Source: Minisyncoccia bacterium
GTDB taxonomy: Bacteria; Patescibacteriota; Minisyncoccia; Phycocordibacterales; UBA9973
Direction: 5' to 3'
Assembly (NCBI GenBank): GCA_049287045.1
Contig: JBAQFC010000008.1
Coordinates: forward strand, 22,198-86,197
Length of the DNA stretch: 64,000 nt
Made by a program: the position numbers and the translations under genes. Of the stretch, positions 9,537 through 61,720 are shown piece by piece. Below the pieces are notes generated by a model, which worked only from the letters and a program-made list of their open reading frames with translations, ran no database searches and had not been told where the DNA came from. The first letter of the stretch is position 1, and every line of letters begins with the position of its first letter.

Positions 9537-9618
9537 TTTTTCAAGGTATTAAGTTAATATTTAAATTACTTTTTCATTTTAGATAGTACAATACTATCTA
9601 AAAAAAATCAATAAAAAA

Positions 9619-9641
9619 TACCCTGACTGAAAGTCAGGGTA
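9619..9641. terminator. Rho-independent terminator downstream of the RRM gene
   Basis: taccctgactgaaagtcagggta perfect hairpin flanked by A/T runs. Confidence 0.55.
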
Positions 9642-9669
9642 TTTTTTATTTTGAGTCTCTAATAAGAGA

Positions 9670-19803: not shown

Positions 19804-20343
19804 ATGAATATGTCAACTAAACCCGACTATTCCAAGAAAATACTTAAGATTTTAGGCGAAAAAACAGCTATTTCCCTGCCTGATTTAACTAATCAAGTAA
19901 ATAGTAAAGACTGCTCTCAAAGCTCCGTATACGCCATCACACGCTCATTAAAAGGGCTTCGTGAAGCTGGTCTGATAGAAAATATTTCCTCCGGGCAAAA
20001 TGATTATGCTCGCCTAACAAAAGAGGGCAAAAAGAAAATAAACAGCCTAAAGCTCGACAGTGACACCACCCTCGTTGATACTTCCTGGGACGGGTTTTGG
20101 AGAATTATTTTACTCGACTTACCAGAGACTAGAAAAAGCGAACGTGAATCTCTTCGTTATTTATTAAAAAAGGCTGGGTTCGTGTGTCTCAAAAATTCCG
20201 CATGGATCTCCCCTTACCCTTATGAACATCTTTTTGAAAACATCAAAAAAGATTTAGAGCTCACTACTGAGATGATGATAATAAAAACTCAATTCATCGA
20301 CGAAGAAACTAAAAAGTTTTTATTTGATACTTTCAAGAAATAA
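19804..20343 (+). CDS. PaaX-family transcriptional regulator (wHTH + Cas2-fold C-domain)
   Basis: C-terminal WDGFWRIILLDLPETRKSERESLRYLLKKAGFVCLKNSAWISPYP matches the PaaX_C signature (WDG.W.....IPE..R..R..LR..L...GF..L.NSVWISP). Confidence 0.6.
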   Translation: MNMSTKPDYSKKILKILGEKTAISLPDLTNQVNSKDCSQSSVYAITRSLKGLREAGLIENISSGQNDYARLTKEGKKKINSLKLDSDTTLVDTSWDGFWRIILLDLPETRKSERESLRYLLKKAGFVCLKNSAWISPYPYEHLFENIKKDLELTTEMMIIKTQFIDEETKKFLFDTFKK

Positions 20344-20370
20344 AAAATCTCACAGTGATGTGAGATTTTT
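20343..20370. terminator. bidirectional terminator between paaX-like and grpE
   Basis: aaaaatctcaca-gtga-tgtgagattttt perfect 12-bp stem with flanking A/T runs. Confidence 0.6.
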
Positions 20371-20374
20371 TATT

Positions 20375-20992
20375 TTATTCTTTATGTCCAAAAACTTTTA
20401 CTCGAGCAGCTCTTAGTACTTTGTCTTTTGTTTTGTATCCTTTTTGTAAAACCTGAGCAATAGTGTCATCTTTAGTTTGGTCAACAGTTTCTACAACCTC
20501 CACAGACTGATGAATTTCAGGATTAAATTTATCACCTACTTGCCCAATAGATTTTATACCGTATTCTTCAAAGATATTACTCATCTGAGAATAGATATAT
20601 TCCACACCAGTCCTCCATGTTGCATCTACTTTCTCCCAAGCTTCTTTGTTTGAGAAAGCCATATCGAAACTATCCATTACAGAAAGGAAATTTTCTAAAA
20701 TTCTTTCTTGAATAATATTTCTGAAATTTCTATTTCTTTCTTCTTCTTCCTTACGGTAATTCACAAAGTCCGCTCGCTCTTTCTGCCAGCCGGTTAGGTA
20801 TTCTTCCTTTTGAGCTTTGAGTTCTTTTATATCAGCCCTAAATTTCTTTAAAGTTTTCTTTAAATCTTCCTCACCGTCATCATTGAATTCAAACTCAACA
20901 ACTTCTGATTCTGGTTCTGTTGGTTCTTTAATTATTTCCCCGCCTGCATCGCTTTGCGAAGCATTGCGGGCAGGTTCATTTTCTTCACTCAT
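20375..20992 (-). CDS. grpE: nucleotide exchange factor GrpE
   Basis: Acidic N-terminus, coiled coil, and the C-terminal GrpE beta domain (FNPEIHQSVEVVET...AQVLQKGYK). Confidence 0.8.
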   Translation of the reverse strand: MSEENEPARNASQSDAGGEIIKEPTEPESEVVEFEFNDDGEEDLKKTLKKFRADIKELKAQKEEYLTGWQKERADFVNYRKEEEERNRNFRNIIQERILENFLSVMDSFDMAFSNKEAWEKVDATWRTGVEYIYSQMSNIFEEYGIKSIGQVGDKFNPEIHQSVEVVETVDQTKDDTIAQVLQKGYKTKDKVLRAARVKVFGHKE

Positions 20993-30768: not shown

Positions 30769-31887
30769 TTATATAACGACACCACCACCGAGGCAAACAT
30801 CTTTATCATAGAAAACGATAGATTGTCCTGGAGCAACGAGTACAGGTTTTTCAAAAATCACTTTTGCGGAAGTCGGACTTCCGCAAATTACTTGGCAAGG
30901 TAAAAATTCACCATGATAACGTACTTGAGCTGTATATTCTTTATTTTCATCTGGAGTGCCTGAGATCCAATTAATGTCACTAATTCTAATTTCTTCCCCT
31001 CCTTTTTGAGGAGGGGTGCTCTTTAGAGCGGGGTGGTGATTCTTTGAATTACCACCCCCAACCCCCTCCTTATTAAGGAGGGGGGAAATCTGTGACACAA
31101 TTATGATATTTTTCTTTACATCTTTACTAACAACATAATAAGCCCCATCATTCGGACCTTTTTTGGTAATGGTAAATCCATGTCTTTCACCTAGAGTCAG
31201 AAAAACAGCTCCGTCATGATATCCAATTTCTTCTCCTACCTCATTTAAAACTTTTCCCTTTTTCTCTTTAATATAATGTTTCAAAAAATCTTTCAAATCA
31301 ATATCACCTAGGAAGCAAATTCCCTGACTATCTTTCTTTTCTGCGACAGGTAATTTATATTTCTTTGCCAATTTTCTCACCGCTGTTTTATTCAAATGCC
31401 CTACGGGAAACAAAATATGTTTTAGTTGTTCTTGTTTTAATGTCCACAAGAAATAACATTGGTCTTTGGACGGATCAATGCCTTTAACTAATTTTTTTTC
31501 TAAAACTTGTGCATAATGCCCAGTCGCTACATAATCTGCACCCATTTCTAGAGCCTTTTTCAAGAAAGCACCGAATTTCACTTCTTTGTTGCACATAACA
31601 TCTGGGTTCGGAGTACGTCCCATTTTATACTCAGCAATCATATAGTCTGCGACTTCTTTTTTGTAAACATCTGAAAGGTCAAAAGTTAAAAATGGAATAT
31701 CCAAATGAGCCGCAACGCGCATAGCGTCGCGGCGCTCATCTTCTTCATTACAAACCAAAAAATCAGGGTGCCAGGTACGAATAAAGACCCCGACGACATC
31801 ATGTCCTTGATCTTTTAAAATTGCAGCGGAAACAGAAGAATCCACTCCGCCTGACATTCCTACAAATATTGTCTTTTTCTTCTTCAT
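30769..31887 (-). CDS. mnmA: tRNA 2-thiouridine(34) synthase MnmA (carries in-frame palindromic insertions)
   Basis: PP-loop SGGVDSS, catalytic cysteines, C-terminal beta-barrel. Contains the 90-bp GC-rich element at 30996-31085 and the 25-nt palindrome at 30863-30887, both in frame. Confidence 0.85.
   Translation of the reverse strand: MKKKKTIFVGMSGGVDSSVSAAILKDQGHDVVGVFIRTWHPDFLVCNEEDERRDAMRVAAHLDIPFLTFDLSDVYKKEVADYMIAEYKMGRTPNPDVMCNKEVKFGAFLKKALEMGADYVATGHYAQVLEKKLVKGIDPSKDQCYFLWTLKQEQLKHILFPVGHLNKTAVRKLAKKYKLPVAEKKDSQGICFLGDIDLKDFLKHYIKEKKGKVLNEVGEEIGYHDGAVFLTLGERHGFTITKKGPNDGAYYVVSKDVKKNIIIVSQISPLLNKEGVGGGNSKNHHPALKSTPPQKGGEEIRISDINWISGTPDENKEYTAQVRYHGEFLPCQVICGSPTSAKVIFEKPVLVAPGQSIVFYDKDVCLGGGVVI
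30863..30887. repeat. 25-nt palindrome tttgcggaagtcggacttccgcaaa (copy 1, inside mnmA)
   Basis: Near-identical to the palindrome at 39662-39688; encodes GSPTSAKVIF in frame. Confidence 0.5.
30996..31085. repeat. GC-rich triple stem-loop element inserted in frame in mnmA
   Basis: Three consecutive hairpins: cccctcc/ggagggg (30996-31016), ggggtggt/accacccc (31030-31058), ccccctcc/ggaggggg (31062-31084). The ~65% GC contrasts with the AT-rich surroundings. Encodes ISPLLNKEGVGGGNSKNHHPALKSTPPQKGGEE without stops. Confidence 0.6.
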
Positions 31888-37786: not shown

Positions 37787-37918
37787 TTTGTGTATTTTTT
37801 ATAATAATAATATTGCCTCATCGGCAATCCACCGTAGAGGCGGAATAAAACAAAAAAGCCCGAGGGCTTCATTTGAATAAATCTATAATAGCATAGTTTT
37901 TCTAAAACAGCAAATAAA

Positions 37919-37946
37919 AAACACCACATAATATCGTGGTGTTTTT
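37919..37946. terminator. Rho-independent terminator after the 550-aa secreted protein gene
   Basis: acaccac-ataatatc-gtggtgt followed by a T-run. A second hairpin, aagcccgagggctt, lies at 37852-37868. Confidence 0.5.
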
Positions 37947-37968
37947 TATTTGCTGAAAGCTTTAAAAA

Positions 37969-49490: not shown

Positions 49491-49558
49491 AGCAAAAGCT
49501 TTTCGAATCCTTCATAAGAGCAAATAAATTTGCTCTTACTCGACGACACATATAAAAA

Positions 49559-49581
49559 AATCCCTTAACAAAGTTAAGGGA
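49559..49581. terminator. terminator hairpin downstream of tRNA-Tyr
   Basis: atcccttaac-aaa-gttaagggat flanked by A/T runs. Confidence 0.55.
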
Positions 49582-49591
49582 TTTTTTATTG

Positions 49592-49674
49592 TGCGTCGGG
49601 AAGGATTCGAACCTTCGAAGCCCGAGGGCGAGAGATTTACAGTCTCTTGTGATAGACCACTCCACCACCGACGC
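49592..49674 (-). tRNA. tRNA-Tyr (anticodon GTA), type II with long variable arm
   Basis: Acceptor GCGTCGG/CCGACGC, anticodon stem AGAGA/TCTCT with loop CTGTAAA, variable arm GCCC-TCG-GGGC, T arm GAAGG-TTCGAAT-CCTTC. Confidence 0.8.
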
Positions 49675-54555: not shown

Positions 54556-55923
54556 CTAATTATACCACTTTTTTAGTTTGGTCAAAATTTGAGACAAAGC
54601 CTTTAGTGTGTAGTCAATATCTGCTTTAGTTGTCTGTCTGCCAAGAGAAAATCTGATTGATCCATCAATTTCTTTATTAACCAATAACTCCCCTAACTGT
54701 GCTTCACGGATAGCTTGTATTACATGAGAAGCCTTTTCATCACCTGATTTACAAGCACTTTTGACAGAGGCCATAATTCCATGAGCAGAAAGTTCGATTA
54801 CCAAAAGATCACTTGGAATTTTTGGAATCGTGATGTTTATATTGTTAGGTAGTCTGTTTTTTAGGTCACCATTTAAAATTACTTTCCCCGAAACCAGGTT
54901 TAGGGGAAAATCCCCTAAACCTGGTTTCTGGAAATGTGTAGTGTCAAGGCTTAACCTTGACATTTTTTTAATAAAATAATCACGAAGTTTAATTAAACGT
55001 TTTACTTCTTTGTCTTTTATTTGTTCAACAGTTTTTAAAGCTTTTGCTAGTCCGACAATCCCGACAATATTTTCTGTCCCTGGTCTTAATCCAAATTCTT
55101 GGTCACCACCAAATATAATATTAGTGATAGGTGTCATTCTTTTTATATACAAAACCCCAACACCACTAGGCCCATAAATTTTTGATCCATTAAATGAAAA
55201 CAAATCAACACCAAGTTTTTCAACATTGATTGATAAATAGTTTATTGCTTGTGTGGCGTCGGTATGAAAAACTGGAAAAATACCAAGGTCGGACCTTTCT
55301 AAATTCTTAAGGTCCGACCTTTTTGCAACTTTATTTTTTCGATAATGACGAATCTCTTTTGCAATTTCTCTTATTGGTTGAATCGTACCAATCTCATTAT
55401 TTGCGTACATTACAGAAACCAAAATCGTATTTGATTTTAATGCTTTTTTAATTTTCTCGGGATCTACTATTCCATTTTCTTCTACTGGCACATAAGTCAC
55501 TTCTATTTGTTTTGTTTTTTCTAAATGTTTACACACTTCCAGAACGGAAGCATGTTCTATATTCGTGGTGATTATATGAGGAATAATTTTTCGAGTATTT
55601 TTTGAAATGCCTTGCGCAGGCTGACGAGCCGAGCAGAGCAATTTGCCAGCAGGCAAATATGTGTGCATTTGAAAAAATGACTCGTAAAATTTATTAATCA
55701 CACCAAGTAGAGCCAAATTATTACTCTCTGTTGCACCAGAGGTAAAAACCACTTCATTAGAGTGTGCACCTAAAATCTTGGCAATTTCTTCTCTTACTTC
55801 ATTCAGTTGTTTTTTCGCTTTCACACCAAAATCGTGAATTGCTCCAGGATTAGCAGGATTAGCTGAAGCACCACTGGCATAATCCATATATATATTCTTT
55901 GATTTTTTGATTGATTTAACCAT
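54556..55923 (-). CDS. cysteine desulfurase (NifS/IscS family) carrying two in-frame repeat-element insertions
   Basis: PLP-lysine region FNGSKIYGPSGVGVLY and the active-site Cys loop SVKSACKSG. Two extra segments, encoded by the repeats at 55600-55677 and 54889-54929, interrupt otherwise IscS-like sequence. Confidence 0.8.
   Translation of the reverse strand: MVKSIKKSKNIYMDYASGASANPANPGAIHDFGVKAKKQLNEVREEIAKILGAHSNEVVFTSGATESNNLALLGVINKFYESFFQMHTYLPAGKLLCSARQPAQGISKNTRKIIPHIITTNIEHASVLEVCKHLEKTKQIEVTYVPVEENGIVDPEKIKKALKSNTILVSVMYANNEIGTIQPIREIAKEIRHYRKNKVAKRSDLKNLERSDLGIFPVFHTDATQAINYLSINVEKLGVDLFSFNGSKIYGPSGVGVLYIKRMTPITNIIFGGDQEFGLRPGTENIVGIVGLAKALKTVEQIKDKEVKRLIKLRDYFIKKMSRLSLDTTHFQKPGLGDFPLNLVSGKVILNGDLKNRLPNNINITIPKIPSDLLVIELSAHGIMASVKSACKSGDEKASHVIQAIREAQLGELLVNKEIDGSIRFSLGRQTTKADIDYTLKALSQILTKLKKWYN
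54889..54929. repeat. perfect 18-bp-stem hairpin element in frame inside the cysteine desulfurase gene
   Basis: gaaaccaggtttagggg-aaaa-tcccctaaacctggtttc encodes QKPGLGDFPLNLVSG; a second small hairpin, caagg-cttaa-ccttg, follows at 54945-54959. Confidence 0.55.
55600..55677. repeat. 75-nt structured repeat, copy A (in frame within the cysteine desulfurase gene)
   Basis: aaatgccttgcgcaggctgacgagccgagcagagcaa + 18-nt hairpin + atgtgtgcattt, bounded by the inverted ends tttgaaatgc/gcatttgaaa. 49 of ~75 nt are identical to copy B at 58720-58795. Confidence 0.6.
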
Positions 55924-58624: not shown

Positions 58625-58697
58625 GCACCCATAACTCAGCTGGTAGAGTAGCTCCCTCTTAAGGAGAATGTCGGAGGTTCGATCCCTCCTGGGTGCA
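58625..58697 (+). tRNA. tRNA-Lys (anticodon CTT)
   Basis: Acceptor GCACCCA/TGGGTGC, anticodon loop CTCTTAA, T arm GGAGG-TTCGATC-CCTCC. Confidence 0.7.
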
Positions 58698-58719
58698 CAC
58701 ACGAGAGAAAGAAAATGTT

Positions 58720-58795
58720 TTTAAAATGCCTTGCGCAGGCTGACGAGCCGAGCAGAGCAAAAATTCAGCAGAATTTTATGTGTGCATTTTAAAAA
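58720..58795. repeat. 75-nt structured repeat, copy B (intergenic, between tRNA-Lys and tRNA-Leu)
   Basis: Identical 37-nt and 12-nt blocks to copy A. The internal hairpin aaaattc-agca-gaatttt differs from copy A (atttgcc-agca-ggcaaat) by compensatory changes that keep a 7-bp stem and the AGCA loop. Perfect terminal inverted ends ttttaaaatgc/gcattttaaaa. Confidence 0.6.
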
Positions 58796-58862
58796 TTTTT
58801 TCTTACTCTCGTGTTTGATTTATTATCAAAAGAAAGCTATTCTATATAGTAATCGAAAAAAT

Positions 58863-61038: not shown

Positions 61039-61655
61039 TGGAAACATTTTTAGAAATTGCCTTAGGCATAGTAGCTTTTGTTGTATTAATTTTTGTTATC
61101 TCGTTAATTAAAAAAGGTGGCAAGGTTAAAGTAAAAGTAGAATTGGGATGGTTCAAAAAAAATGGACTGTTTATAATATTCTACATACTAGGAATAATCT
61201 TCATGCAAATGCAGTGCCCTCTACTTTGGCACGTGTGGTATGATTTTCCTTTATTCTTTTGGATTACCAATGCAATTGTTTTAATTGTATTGATCTTTTT
61301 TAGAGATTTTTTGTTTTTTGCGGTTTTGATTATTATTGTATTGATTGGTTTGAATTACACAATACCCTTTTTTGCACACAGCAGTCATGGTACACCAACA
61401 ATACAAACAATAGAAAAACAAGAAGCAAAAAAAGTATTTTATAAGTTTTCTGCAAATGTAAAATGTATTTCAGTTTATTTAAAAAGTGAAACTGCATTTT
61501 ACCCTAAGGGTGGAAAAATAATTATAAAATCTCCATCAGGGACTACATGGGAATTAAAACCAGGTGAAGTCCTAGATATGGGTCGCCAACTTGCAGGCTG
61601 GTTTTCGGTCTGCCAAGGTGAACCAAGTAATTATGGAGTAGAAGTATTGAATTAA
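61038..61655 (+). CDS. polytopic membrane protein translationally coupled to the SPFH gene (possible NfeD-like partner)
   Basis: ATGA start/stop overlap; ~4 TM helices followed by a ~90-aa beta-rich soluble C-terminal domain. Confidence 0.4.
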   Translation: METFLEIALGIVAFVVLIFVISLIKKGGKVKVKVELGWFKKNGLFIIFYILGIIFMQMQCPLLWHVWYDFPLFFWITNAIVLIVLIFFRDFLFFAVLIIIVLIGLNYTIPFFAHSSHGTPTIQTIEKQEAKKVFYKFSANVKCISVYLKSETAFYPKGGKIIIKSPSGTTWELKPGEVLDMGRQLAGWFSVCQGEPSNYGVEVLN

Positions 61656-61685
61656 GGGCATAATATCGCATTGCCCAATGCAAAC

Positions 61686-61720
61686 AAAAAGCCGTTCACA
61701 AATTGTGAACGGCTTTTTTT
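61686..61720. terminator. bidirectional Rho-independent terminator
   Basis: aaaaagccgttcaca-aatt-tgtgaacggcttttt perfect 15-bp stem. Confidence 0.6.

Follow-up and report, generated by a model that had tools for sequence, protein, structure and literature searches.

A GC-rich palindromic repeat, probably inserted in frame, in the mnmA gene of a Minisyncoccia bacterium

Introduction

How does a gene for a tRNA-modifying enzyme, in an AT-rich genome, come to contain a compact chain of GC-rich hairpins that leaves its reading frame open? The question is raised by a stretch of 64,000 nucleotides from a Minisyncoccia bacterium (Patescibacteriota; contig JBAQFC010000008.1, positions 22,198 to 86,197), hereafter the window, whose mnmA gene (tRNA 2-thiouridine(34) synthase) carries a 90-nt element of this kind. 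A preliminary description of the window had proposed a selfish palindrome inserted in frame, similar to the Rickettsia palindromic elements (RPEs). The analysis presented here agrees with that proposal, since the same unit was found at a second site of mnmA, in at least 10 other gene families and in intergenic DNA. The element is most likely a non-autonomous, RPE-like GC-rich palindromic repeat of a family termed A, one copy of which was inserted in frame in mnmA. Family A is a repeat of about 88-92 bp with four hairpins and the termini CTCCCCTCC...GGAGGGGAG, dispersed in Nomurabacteria/Paceibacterota-type Patescibacteria (candidate phyla radiation, CPR) genomes.

RPEs (RPE-1 to RPE-10) are interspersed repeats of 100-150 bp, abundant in intergenic and coding DNA; they lie in frame in unrelated genes, encode a conserved peptide and are compatible with the fold of the host protein (PMC10969869, PMC1779305). 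They go back to Ogata et al. (2000, Science; 2002, Genome Res), as these two articles summarize them. No prior description of such elements in CPR, Patescibacteria or Parcubacteria was found in the literature searched, subscription journals being outside its scope.

Results

Host gene and hairpin element

The open reading frame (ORF) 30769-31887 is a bona fide, unambiguous MnmA gene. Its product contains the Pfam domains PF03054 (HUP, residues 6-194), PF20259 (PRC-barrel, 199-266) and PF20258 (C-terminal barrel, 299-371), and matches solved MnmA structures with E = 2.5e-84 (2hma/9hlv) and 3.5e-83 (2der). The element encodes roughly residues 268-298, (S)PLLNKEGVGGGNSKNHHPALKSTPPQKGG(E), beginning at position 2 of codon S268 and ending at position 1 of codon E298, and conserved termini CT...A extend its 90-nt core by about 2 nt per side (Table 1). 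It had been described as exactly 30 codons: the length of 90 nt holds, while the ends fall inside codons and the peptide quoted has 33 residues.

The three stem-loops first reported were located where they had been placed, and a fourth, small hairpin has to be added to them. The outer 21-nt hairpins, 1 and 4, are 90% identical to each other, and the arms of these terminal hairpins read CCUCCUU/AAGGAGG, resembling an anti-Shine–Dalgarno/Shine–Dalgarno (anti-SD/SD) pair. The GC content was 55.6%, compared with 34.6% on average in the window, so the earlier figure of about 65% was too high. Folded as RNA, the element reached a minimum free energy of -61 kcal/mol with z = -7.8, none of 200 dinucleotide shuffles being as stable; as DNA, z was -8.2 (dinucleotide shuffles). 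In a GC-corrected sliding-window scan, it was the strongest folding outlier within any ORF of the 64 kb.

Of the six frames in which the window element can be read, five contain stop codons; the sixth, which is open, is the one used in mnmA and in the other hosts, and mnmA stays open because the copy sits in it. On the element's strand of the window, GGGGG and GGAGGGG do not occur again, and the 64 kb contain no other GGAGGGG hairpin. A comparison with Rfam 15 (evalue and gathering thresholds; ribozymes and introns included) gave no family at gathering score. The best matches, driven by G/C runs, stayed below threshold: TB10Cs1H1 with 31.3 bits (threshold 45) and DUF1874 RNA with 26 bits (threshold 42).

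Table 1. The family-A element, its hairpins and related features of mnmA in the window.
Feature	Position	Strand	Sequence	Plus-strand sequence or arms	Basis
mnmA (tRNA 2-thiouridine(34) synthase), host gene, 372 aa	30769..31887	-			ORF call, Pfam and structure matches
Family-A palindromic repeat element	30994..31087 (core 30996-31085)	-			Boundaries from copies at other sites and genes
Hairpin 1 (mRNA 5')	31062..31084	-	CCCCCUCCUUA-A-UAAGGAGGGGG	CCCCCTCCTTA/TAAGGAGGGGG	Inverted repeat I3, 11-nt arms, 100% complementary
Hairpin 2 (central)	31030..31058	-	GGGGUGGUAAUUC-AAA-GAAUCACCACCCC	GGGGTGGTGATTC/GAATTACCACCCC	Inverted repeat I2, 13-nt arms, 92% complementary
Hairpin 3 (small)	31018..31029	-	GCUC-UAAA-GAGC	GCTC-TTTA-GAGC	RNA fold and comparison of copies
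Hairpin 4 (mRNA 3')	30996..31016	-	CCCCUCCU-CAAAA-AGGAGGGG	CCCCTCCT/AGGAGGGG	Inverted repeat I6, direct repeat D2
mnmA site 2, unoccupied hotspot, residues A126-I137	31477..31512	-	AQVLEKKLVKGI		Insert occupancy in relatives

Dispersed copies of family A

The 19-base core GGAGGGGNNNNGGGGTGGTAATT was scanned against metagenome contigs and recurred in at least 120 stretches, with at most 3 copies per contig among the matches listed, from which the counts by context, the hosts and the alignments below are also taken. A genome-wide search for the hairpin motifs had been suggested in the preliminary description; the window itself contains a single family-A copy. Among 128 listed copies, 71 lie in sense in an open frame of at least 200 aa, in 46 distinct upstream contexts, 8 are antisense to such a frame, and in 12 no frame is open through the element; the remainder fall in short frames or at contig ends. 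Family A accordingly occupies both coding and intergenic DNA (79 copies in frames of at least 200 aa versus 12 without an open frame).

By Pfam, the hosts are PheS, PheT, UvrA, UvrB, TsaD, FtsK, LigA, TopA, RNase R and ComM/YifB, with two copies within one gene in the case of UvrB. A protein-database search with a concatenated 67-aa query of the element returned 3 candidates, one being a UvrB fragment with the element in frame. In both mnmA sites and in at least 10 other gene families, the same frame is used and yields the family peptide (S/T)PLL.KEG.GGGNSK..HHPALKGTPPQKGGE. At the second mnmA site, family A is present in L038 and L059, again in this frame (TGHYAR[ISPLLDKEGVGGGNSKNHHPAYGTPPQKGGEG]FKLLK), with 90% identity over 95 nt to the window unit. 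On unrelated contigs, FtsK or RNase R carry copies with 91-93% identity to that of the window, which is closer to these than to the orthologous copies of L002, L004 and L005.

Some copies are frame-shifted variants (L098, L100, L105, L116, L196 and others), where a one-base change in the loop of hairpin 2 makes the 3' half read NSLITTSPFGHSSSTRRR. They have lost the stop codon that the window copy has in that frame, and one DNA repeat thus gives two different peptides. Among 2.9 million viral contigs, a single match to the core was obtained (L201, 8616-8638; IMGVR_UViG_3300029286_000283), which gives no evidence of a phage vector.

On a further contig (L087, Ga0194039_1000890), uvrA and uvrB are adjacent and both contain family-A-type inserts; uvrB has two of them, one full copy and one variant (SPILVEEGEGGGDSKLPPRPLGTPPLKGGD).

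Covariation and conservation of the hairpins

Covariation was evaluated in an alignment of 45 distinct full-length copies. With the four-hairpin structure, 94.1% of the cells were paired, compared with 54-67% when the partners were slid by 1-3 columns. Changes on both sides of a pair were found at 8 pairs and in 40 cells; the slid controls gave 0-6 pairs, and none of 500 shuffles reached the observed values. Since the retrieval pattern had fixed part of helices 1 and 2, it is relevant that most double changes are borne by helices 4 and 5, which were unconstrained.

Helix 1 was 95% paired in the 45 copies, with double changes from U-A to C-G, and helix 2 was 97% paired. Hairpin 3 showed both-side changes at 3 of its 4 pairs across copies, and its loop is longer in some of them (9 additional nt in L004, for example). 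Helix 5, in hairpin 4, was 99% paired, with alignment columns 79/97 being U-A in 26 copies and C-G in 19.

When loci L001-L005 were compared with the window, the identity of the mnmA copy of the element was 80-94%, whereas mnmA on either side of it reached 65-78% and the third codon positions 37-62%. Constraint at the nucleotide level maintains the hairpins: the copies covary, and conservation is higher in the element than in the gene around it. From the high identity across species and hosts, it follows that the nucleotide sequence is constrained or homogenized and does not decay neutrally.

Insert position and the two hotspots of mnmA

The insert lies in the linker that joins the PRC-barrel to the C-terminal barrel and makes it longer by about 30 residues; the window protein has 33 residues where solved MnmA proteins have about 11. 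An AlphaFold2 model of the window protein, built on 82 sequences (mean predicted local distance difference test score, pLDDT, 78.5), superimposed on 2hma/2der/2det with template modeling (TM) scores of 0.70-0.75, so that the fold matches MnmA. Residues 271-296 had pLDDT < 50 and no secondary structure in this model, between the confident strands 261-265 (end of the PRC-barrel) and 299-307 (start of the C-terminal barrel). On this model, the insert would form a disordered loop between the two domains, which is compatible with the fold of the host, and the surface-loop position that had been suggested agrees with the model to the extent that the segment is a low-confidence, unstructured loop.

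For comparison, the 120 closest database proteins were used, all from Nomurabacteria/Paceibacterota-type Patescibacteria and 343-459 aa long, and linker DNA was taken from 80 genome loci, giving 81 linkers in total. As had been anticipated for orthologs, the family-A segment is missing from many close relatives and from the solved structures of MnmA. The query-type linker peptide is restricted to the nearest ones (L001, L002, L004, L005 and P0001-P0018); in these four loci, it is likewise encoded by GC-rich hairpins with compensatory changes, and not by the ordinary AT-rich codons without hairpin symmetry against which the preliminary description had set its claim.

The shortest and commonest linker consists of 15-17 AT-rich codons, for instance NKNISHSNILTNYRIEN (51 nt, GC of about 0.2). 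All 81 linkers have a length that is a multiple of 3 and no stop codon. Nearly all the long ones form either one extended hairpin with near-perfect pairing or several hairpins in a row, with z from -5 to -12, values that are somewhat generous because mononucleotide shuffles were used. Their inserts belong to several sequence families without relation to each other. Blastn against all fetched loci located these families again about 500 nt upstream, in another loop of mnmA (site 2; TGHYA..[insert]..KG.DPSKDQ), and also near -970 nt and in other genes, in both orientations. One family often occupies both mnmA sites of a genome (96% identity in L049, 94% in L010).

Inserts are present at the linker (site 1) in 57 of 81 cases and at site 2 in 68 of 80; 50 of 80 relatives have both sites occupied and 6 have neither. 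Both hotspots hold many unrelated palindrome families that behave like family A. In the window, site 1 is occupied and site 2 is vacant.

The 51-nt linkers of L030, L031, L033, L036, L037, L042 and L021, in which blastn matched none of the insert families and which are on that basis classed as without a recognizable insert, still have a small hairpin that is conserved, ATTCTAA..TTC.TAAC.GAA..TTAGAAT (z -2.3 to -4.3). Among the remaining short "empty" linkers, some, such as QNKNFCL, resemble collapsed outer stems of past palindromes.

Two other readings of the linker were tried and rejected. NHHPALK was considered as the native HEHPRLMS linker lying between two small hairpin insertions, but the whole unit, HHPA included, recurs elsewhere. 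Local template switching, with native 5' codons and a locally made 3' arm, was set aside as the origin because site 2 of these genomes has the same stems.

Other palindromes in the window

In a cysteine desulfurase-like gene (54556-55923, minus strand), three or more palindromic or repeat inserts lie in frame. The first (54881-54937) has 27-nt arms and z -7.1. The second (55283-55325), GGTCGGACC...GGTCCGACC, encodes KRSDLKNLERSDL, and its family has further members in LigA (L174) and in two mnmA linkers (L043 and L022). The third (55599-55641) is a 43-nt repeat encoding ..SARQPAQG.., with a 98% identical copy at 58718-58760, which is intergenic, in a tRNA cluster, and inside an inverted repeat with 34-nt arms (58696-58817). 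With these two copies, another family is found in coding and non-coding DNA of this window.

Most other strong hairpins (9581-9650, 20311-20380, 37891-37960, 49531-49600, 61651-61720 and others) are intergenic palindromes with an A-run, a stem and a T-run, as is typical of bidirectional intrinsic terminators, and are unrelated to the coding palindromes.

Discussion

Ends of the element and points against a mobile repeat

The element has 9-nt terminal inverted repeats, CTCCCCTCC/GGAGGGGAG, and its ends, CT-CCCCTCC ... GGAGGRG-A, are conserved in the 48 listed full copies. The only flank preference in these copies is for the conserved CT and A at the termini.

Several results weigh against the interpretation as an inserted mobile repeat. 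No direct repeat of 2 nt or more was found at the junctions of 45 of the 48 copies, and without a target-site duplication, classical transposition is not demonstrated. No gene of the Y1/HUH transposase or RAYT (REP-associated tyrosine transposase, where REP is repetitive extragenic palindrome) type was found in 5,783 ORFs from 2.25 Mb of loci, using a weak probe (an IS608-TnpA-like sequence, together with an HUH regular expression) and no screen for DDE enzymes; the same screen, with the same limits, gave no parent insertion sequence (IS) with matching ends. As no transposition machinery was found, it is the distribution of the copies that suggests mobility and a "selfish" nature. Translation of the insert is likewise suggested by the conservation of the frame, although the constraint on frame and stop codons does argue for translation of the element and against its being spliced out or bypassed. 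The single family-A copy in 64 kb points to a modest copy number per genome. Finally, the near-saturation of the two mnmA sites exceeds what a purely selfish model of random insertion would give and may indicate targeting or function. The hotspot pattern leaves room for targeting, for replacement of old copies or for a selected role at the RNA or DNA level.

Comparison with known systems

Like RPEs, family A consists of short interspersed palindromes that occur in intergenic and coding DNA of an AT-rich, reduced genome and lie in frame in unrelated genes with housekeeping functions (PheT in both cases), with a conserved peptide per family, fold-compatible sites and no linked transposase known. 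It differs in belonging to the Patescibacteria/CPR phylum, with no sequence relationship shown; in size (about 90 bp versus 100-150 bp); in being strongly GC-rich, with four G/C-run hairpins and SD/anti-SD-like arms; in its modular variants; in the near-saturation of two sites of one gene by many families; and in being more conserved than the host gene. Given the Patescibacteria host, the length of about 90 bp and the GC-richness, family A is not filed as an RPE but as a repeat that works like one.

[quoted passage not shown] As in family A, MITEs are small and multi-copy, code for no transposase, have terminal inverted repeats and can lie within an ORF while leaving it unbroken. In contrast, family A has a chain of internal hairpins instead of two terminal repeats around a spacer, lacks the target-site duplication in 45 of the 48 listed copies, and has no parent IS with matching ends in the weak screen described above.

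REPs are extragenic, 20-40 bp long, and carry GTAG/CGTC tags (PMC3733652). Together with the mosaics that they form (BIMEs), the REPIN-RAYT systems (Y1 HUH) and palindromes derived from IS200/IS605, they share with family A the multi-copy GC-rich hairpins at both ends, the absence of a target-site duplication, genome-specific family sequences at shared positions and the occurrence in both orientations. Family A is nevertheless about 90 bp long and largely intragenic, its termini CTCCCC.../...GGGGAG are without the GTAG/CGTC tag, and no RAYT or TnpA was detected, by what was a weak test. With hairpins at both ends and no target-site duplication, single-strand systems that recognize hairpins, or recombination, would fit better than a classical MITE.

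The mitochondrial genomes of yeast and other fungi contain GC clusters, GC-rich repeats that spread in an AT-rich genome. Coding palindromes have also been described in mitochondrial genes of Nematomorpha (PMC6649704). Both resemble family A in spreading in an AT-rich genome, with some copies in frame within protein genes and translated, as is presumed for family A. Both are organellar systems and have no homology to family A, and the Nematomorpha repeats are long, perfect inverted repeats with both arms coding.

Alternative explanations

The alternative that survives best, though it is unlikely, is that the hairpin cluster is a functional cis-acting RNA or DNA structure, now or by co-option, and that the family is retained at inter-domain loops for this effect. 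It could slow the ribosome at the domain boundary and aid co-translational folding, expose the SD-like AAGGAGG once unwound, provide a site for RNase III or stabilize the transcript. Internal SD-like pausing at the GGAGG motifs had also been raised as a possibility in the preliminary description. The covarying stems, 94% paired across copies, the conservation above that of the host gene and the anti-SD-like and SD-like terminal arms all agree with such a role, as do the varied palindromes at two mnmA sites between structural units (57/81 and 68/80 relatives) and the small hairpin still present in 51-nt linkers without a recognizable insert. However, covariation among copies is equally expected if the hairpins are the propagation substrate of a mobile family. 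Family A is also intergenic and antisense, its hosts are proteins of unrelated function, and no Rfam family was reached at gathering score. Moreover, the 6 relatives that are insert-free at both sites, and the window mnmA at site 2, indicate that the inserts are dispensable.

It is very unlikely that the insert is a lineage-specific, adaptive surface loop of MnmA, selected for binding tRNA or a partner, with the DNA symmetry being incidental. The peptide is conserved in the closest relatives (P0001-P0018, L001/2/4/5), and HMMER aligned NHHPALKST with the native linker motif HEHPRLMS; HHPALK, however, recurs at other sites and in other genes and so is part of the element, not of MnmA. Peptide and DNA are found in identical form at a different site of mnmA and in 10 or more unrelated proteins, the nucleotide conservation goes beyond the needs of a disordered loop, the frame-shifted variants yield a different peptide from the same DNA, and many relatives have unrelated sequence or nothing at this position. 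As far as sequence comparison can tell, the dispersed copies have already largely refuted this explanation.

Just as improbable is a local origin of the palindrome, in which an ancestral small hairpin of the linker grew by template switching or hairpin extension and no complete unit was imported. In its favor are the hairpin ATTCTAA..TTC.TAAC.GAA..TTAGAAT in linkers without a recognizable insert, the native-looking codons (SQDKN / NFCL) that the outer stem of other families seems to include, and the short linkers resembling collapsed stems. Against this, the complete 90-nt family-A unit recurs with about 90% identity in unrelated genes and at unrelated sites, and the outer stems of family E and others are common to sites 1 and 2 (the 96% and 94% of L049 and L010) and hence belong to the elements. 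Judged from their sequences, the dispersed copies refute a local origin of the window copy, and local processes may lie behind the later growth or shrinkage of inserts.

The least probable alternative, an intervening sequence absent from the protein through intron-like removal from the RNA (RNase III and ligation) or ribosome bypass, has in its favor the very stable, compact structure with a closing stem and the intervening sequences known in rRNA genes of CPR genomes, but frame and stop codons would be under relaxed selection if it were removed, whereas all 81 linkers are stop-free multiples of 3, in-gene copies use the sole stop-free frame, frame-shifted variants have lost the stop codon of the new frame, and no ribozyme or intron family was matched.

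Proposed history of the insertion

For the favored interpretation, an RPE-like repeat inserted in frame, the following course can be proposed. In an ancestor of the sub-lineage, a family-A copy would have landed in the inter-domain linker of mnmA, at the cost of about 10 native codons of that linker. The presumed translation product of the element is a Gly/Pro/Lys-rich loop of about 30 residues, unstructured in the model between the two barrels, and an insert in such a disordered loop would be tolerated. The constraint on the hairpins may then reflect the needs of the machinery of propagation or gene conversion, or a role at the RNA or DNA level, and not the needs of MnmA. As for mobilization, a single-strand mechanism similar to IS200/IS605 or REP/RAYT, or recombination between copies, seems likelier than cut-and-paste of a MITE by a DDE enzyme.

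A much wider proposal is speculative and has a modest chance of being right: CPR may harbor a large system of coding palindromes, with many GC-rich families targeted to, or retained at, inter-domain loops of core genes, homogenized within genomes and constrained beyond the host enzyme. These would either spread by a new hairpin-specific mechanism without target-site duplication or serve the host at the RNA or DNA level, for instance as SD/anti-SD hairpins that pace ribosomes at domain boundaries.

Significance

RPEs were reportedly presented by Ogata et al. in 2002 as unique to Rickettsia. In-frame selfish palindromes have been called a "unique but recurrent feature" of Rickettsia. Family A is a further, phylogenetically remote example of coding palindromes of this type. 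A counterpart unrelated in sequence that pervades core genes of CPR would mean that the phenomenon arose independently in another lineage with small, AT-rich genomes.

Such repeats would explain much of the odd length variation and many of the low-complexity Gly/Pro segments of CPR proteins, and annotators and structure predictors should be aware that these segments may be repeat-derived. In essential enzymes, the inserts would also mark in a natural way the loop sites that are permissive. Lastly, the saturation of the hotspots and an element conserved above the surrounding enzyme raise the question of whether these repeats are purely parasitic or have been co-opted by the CPR cell.

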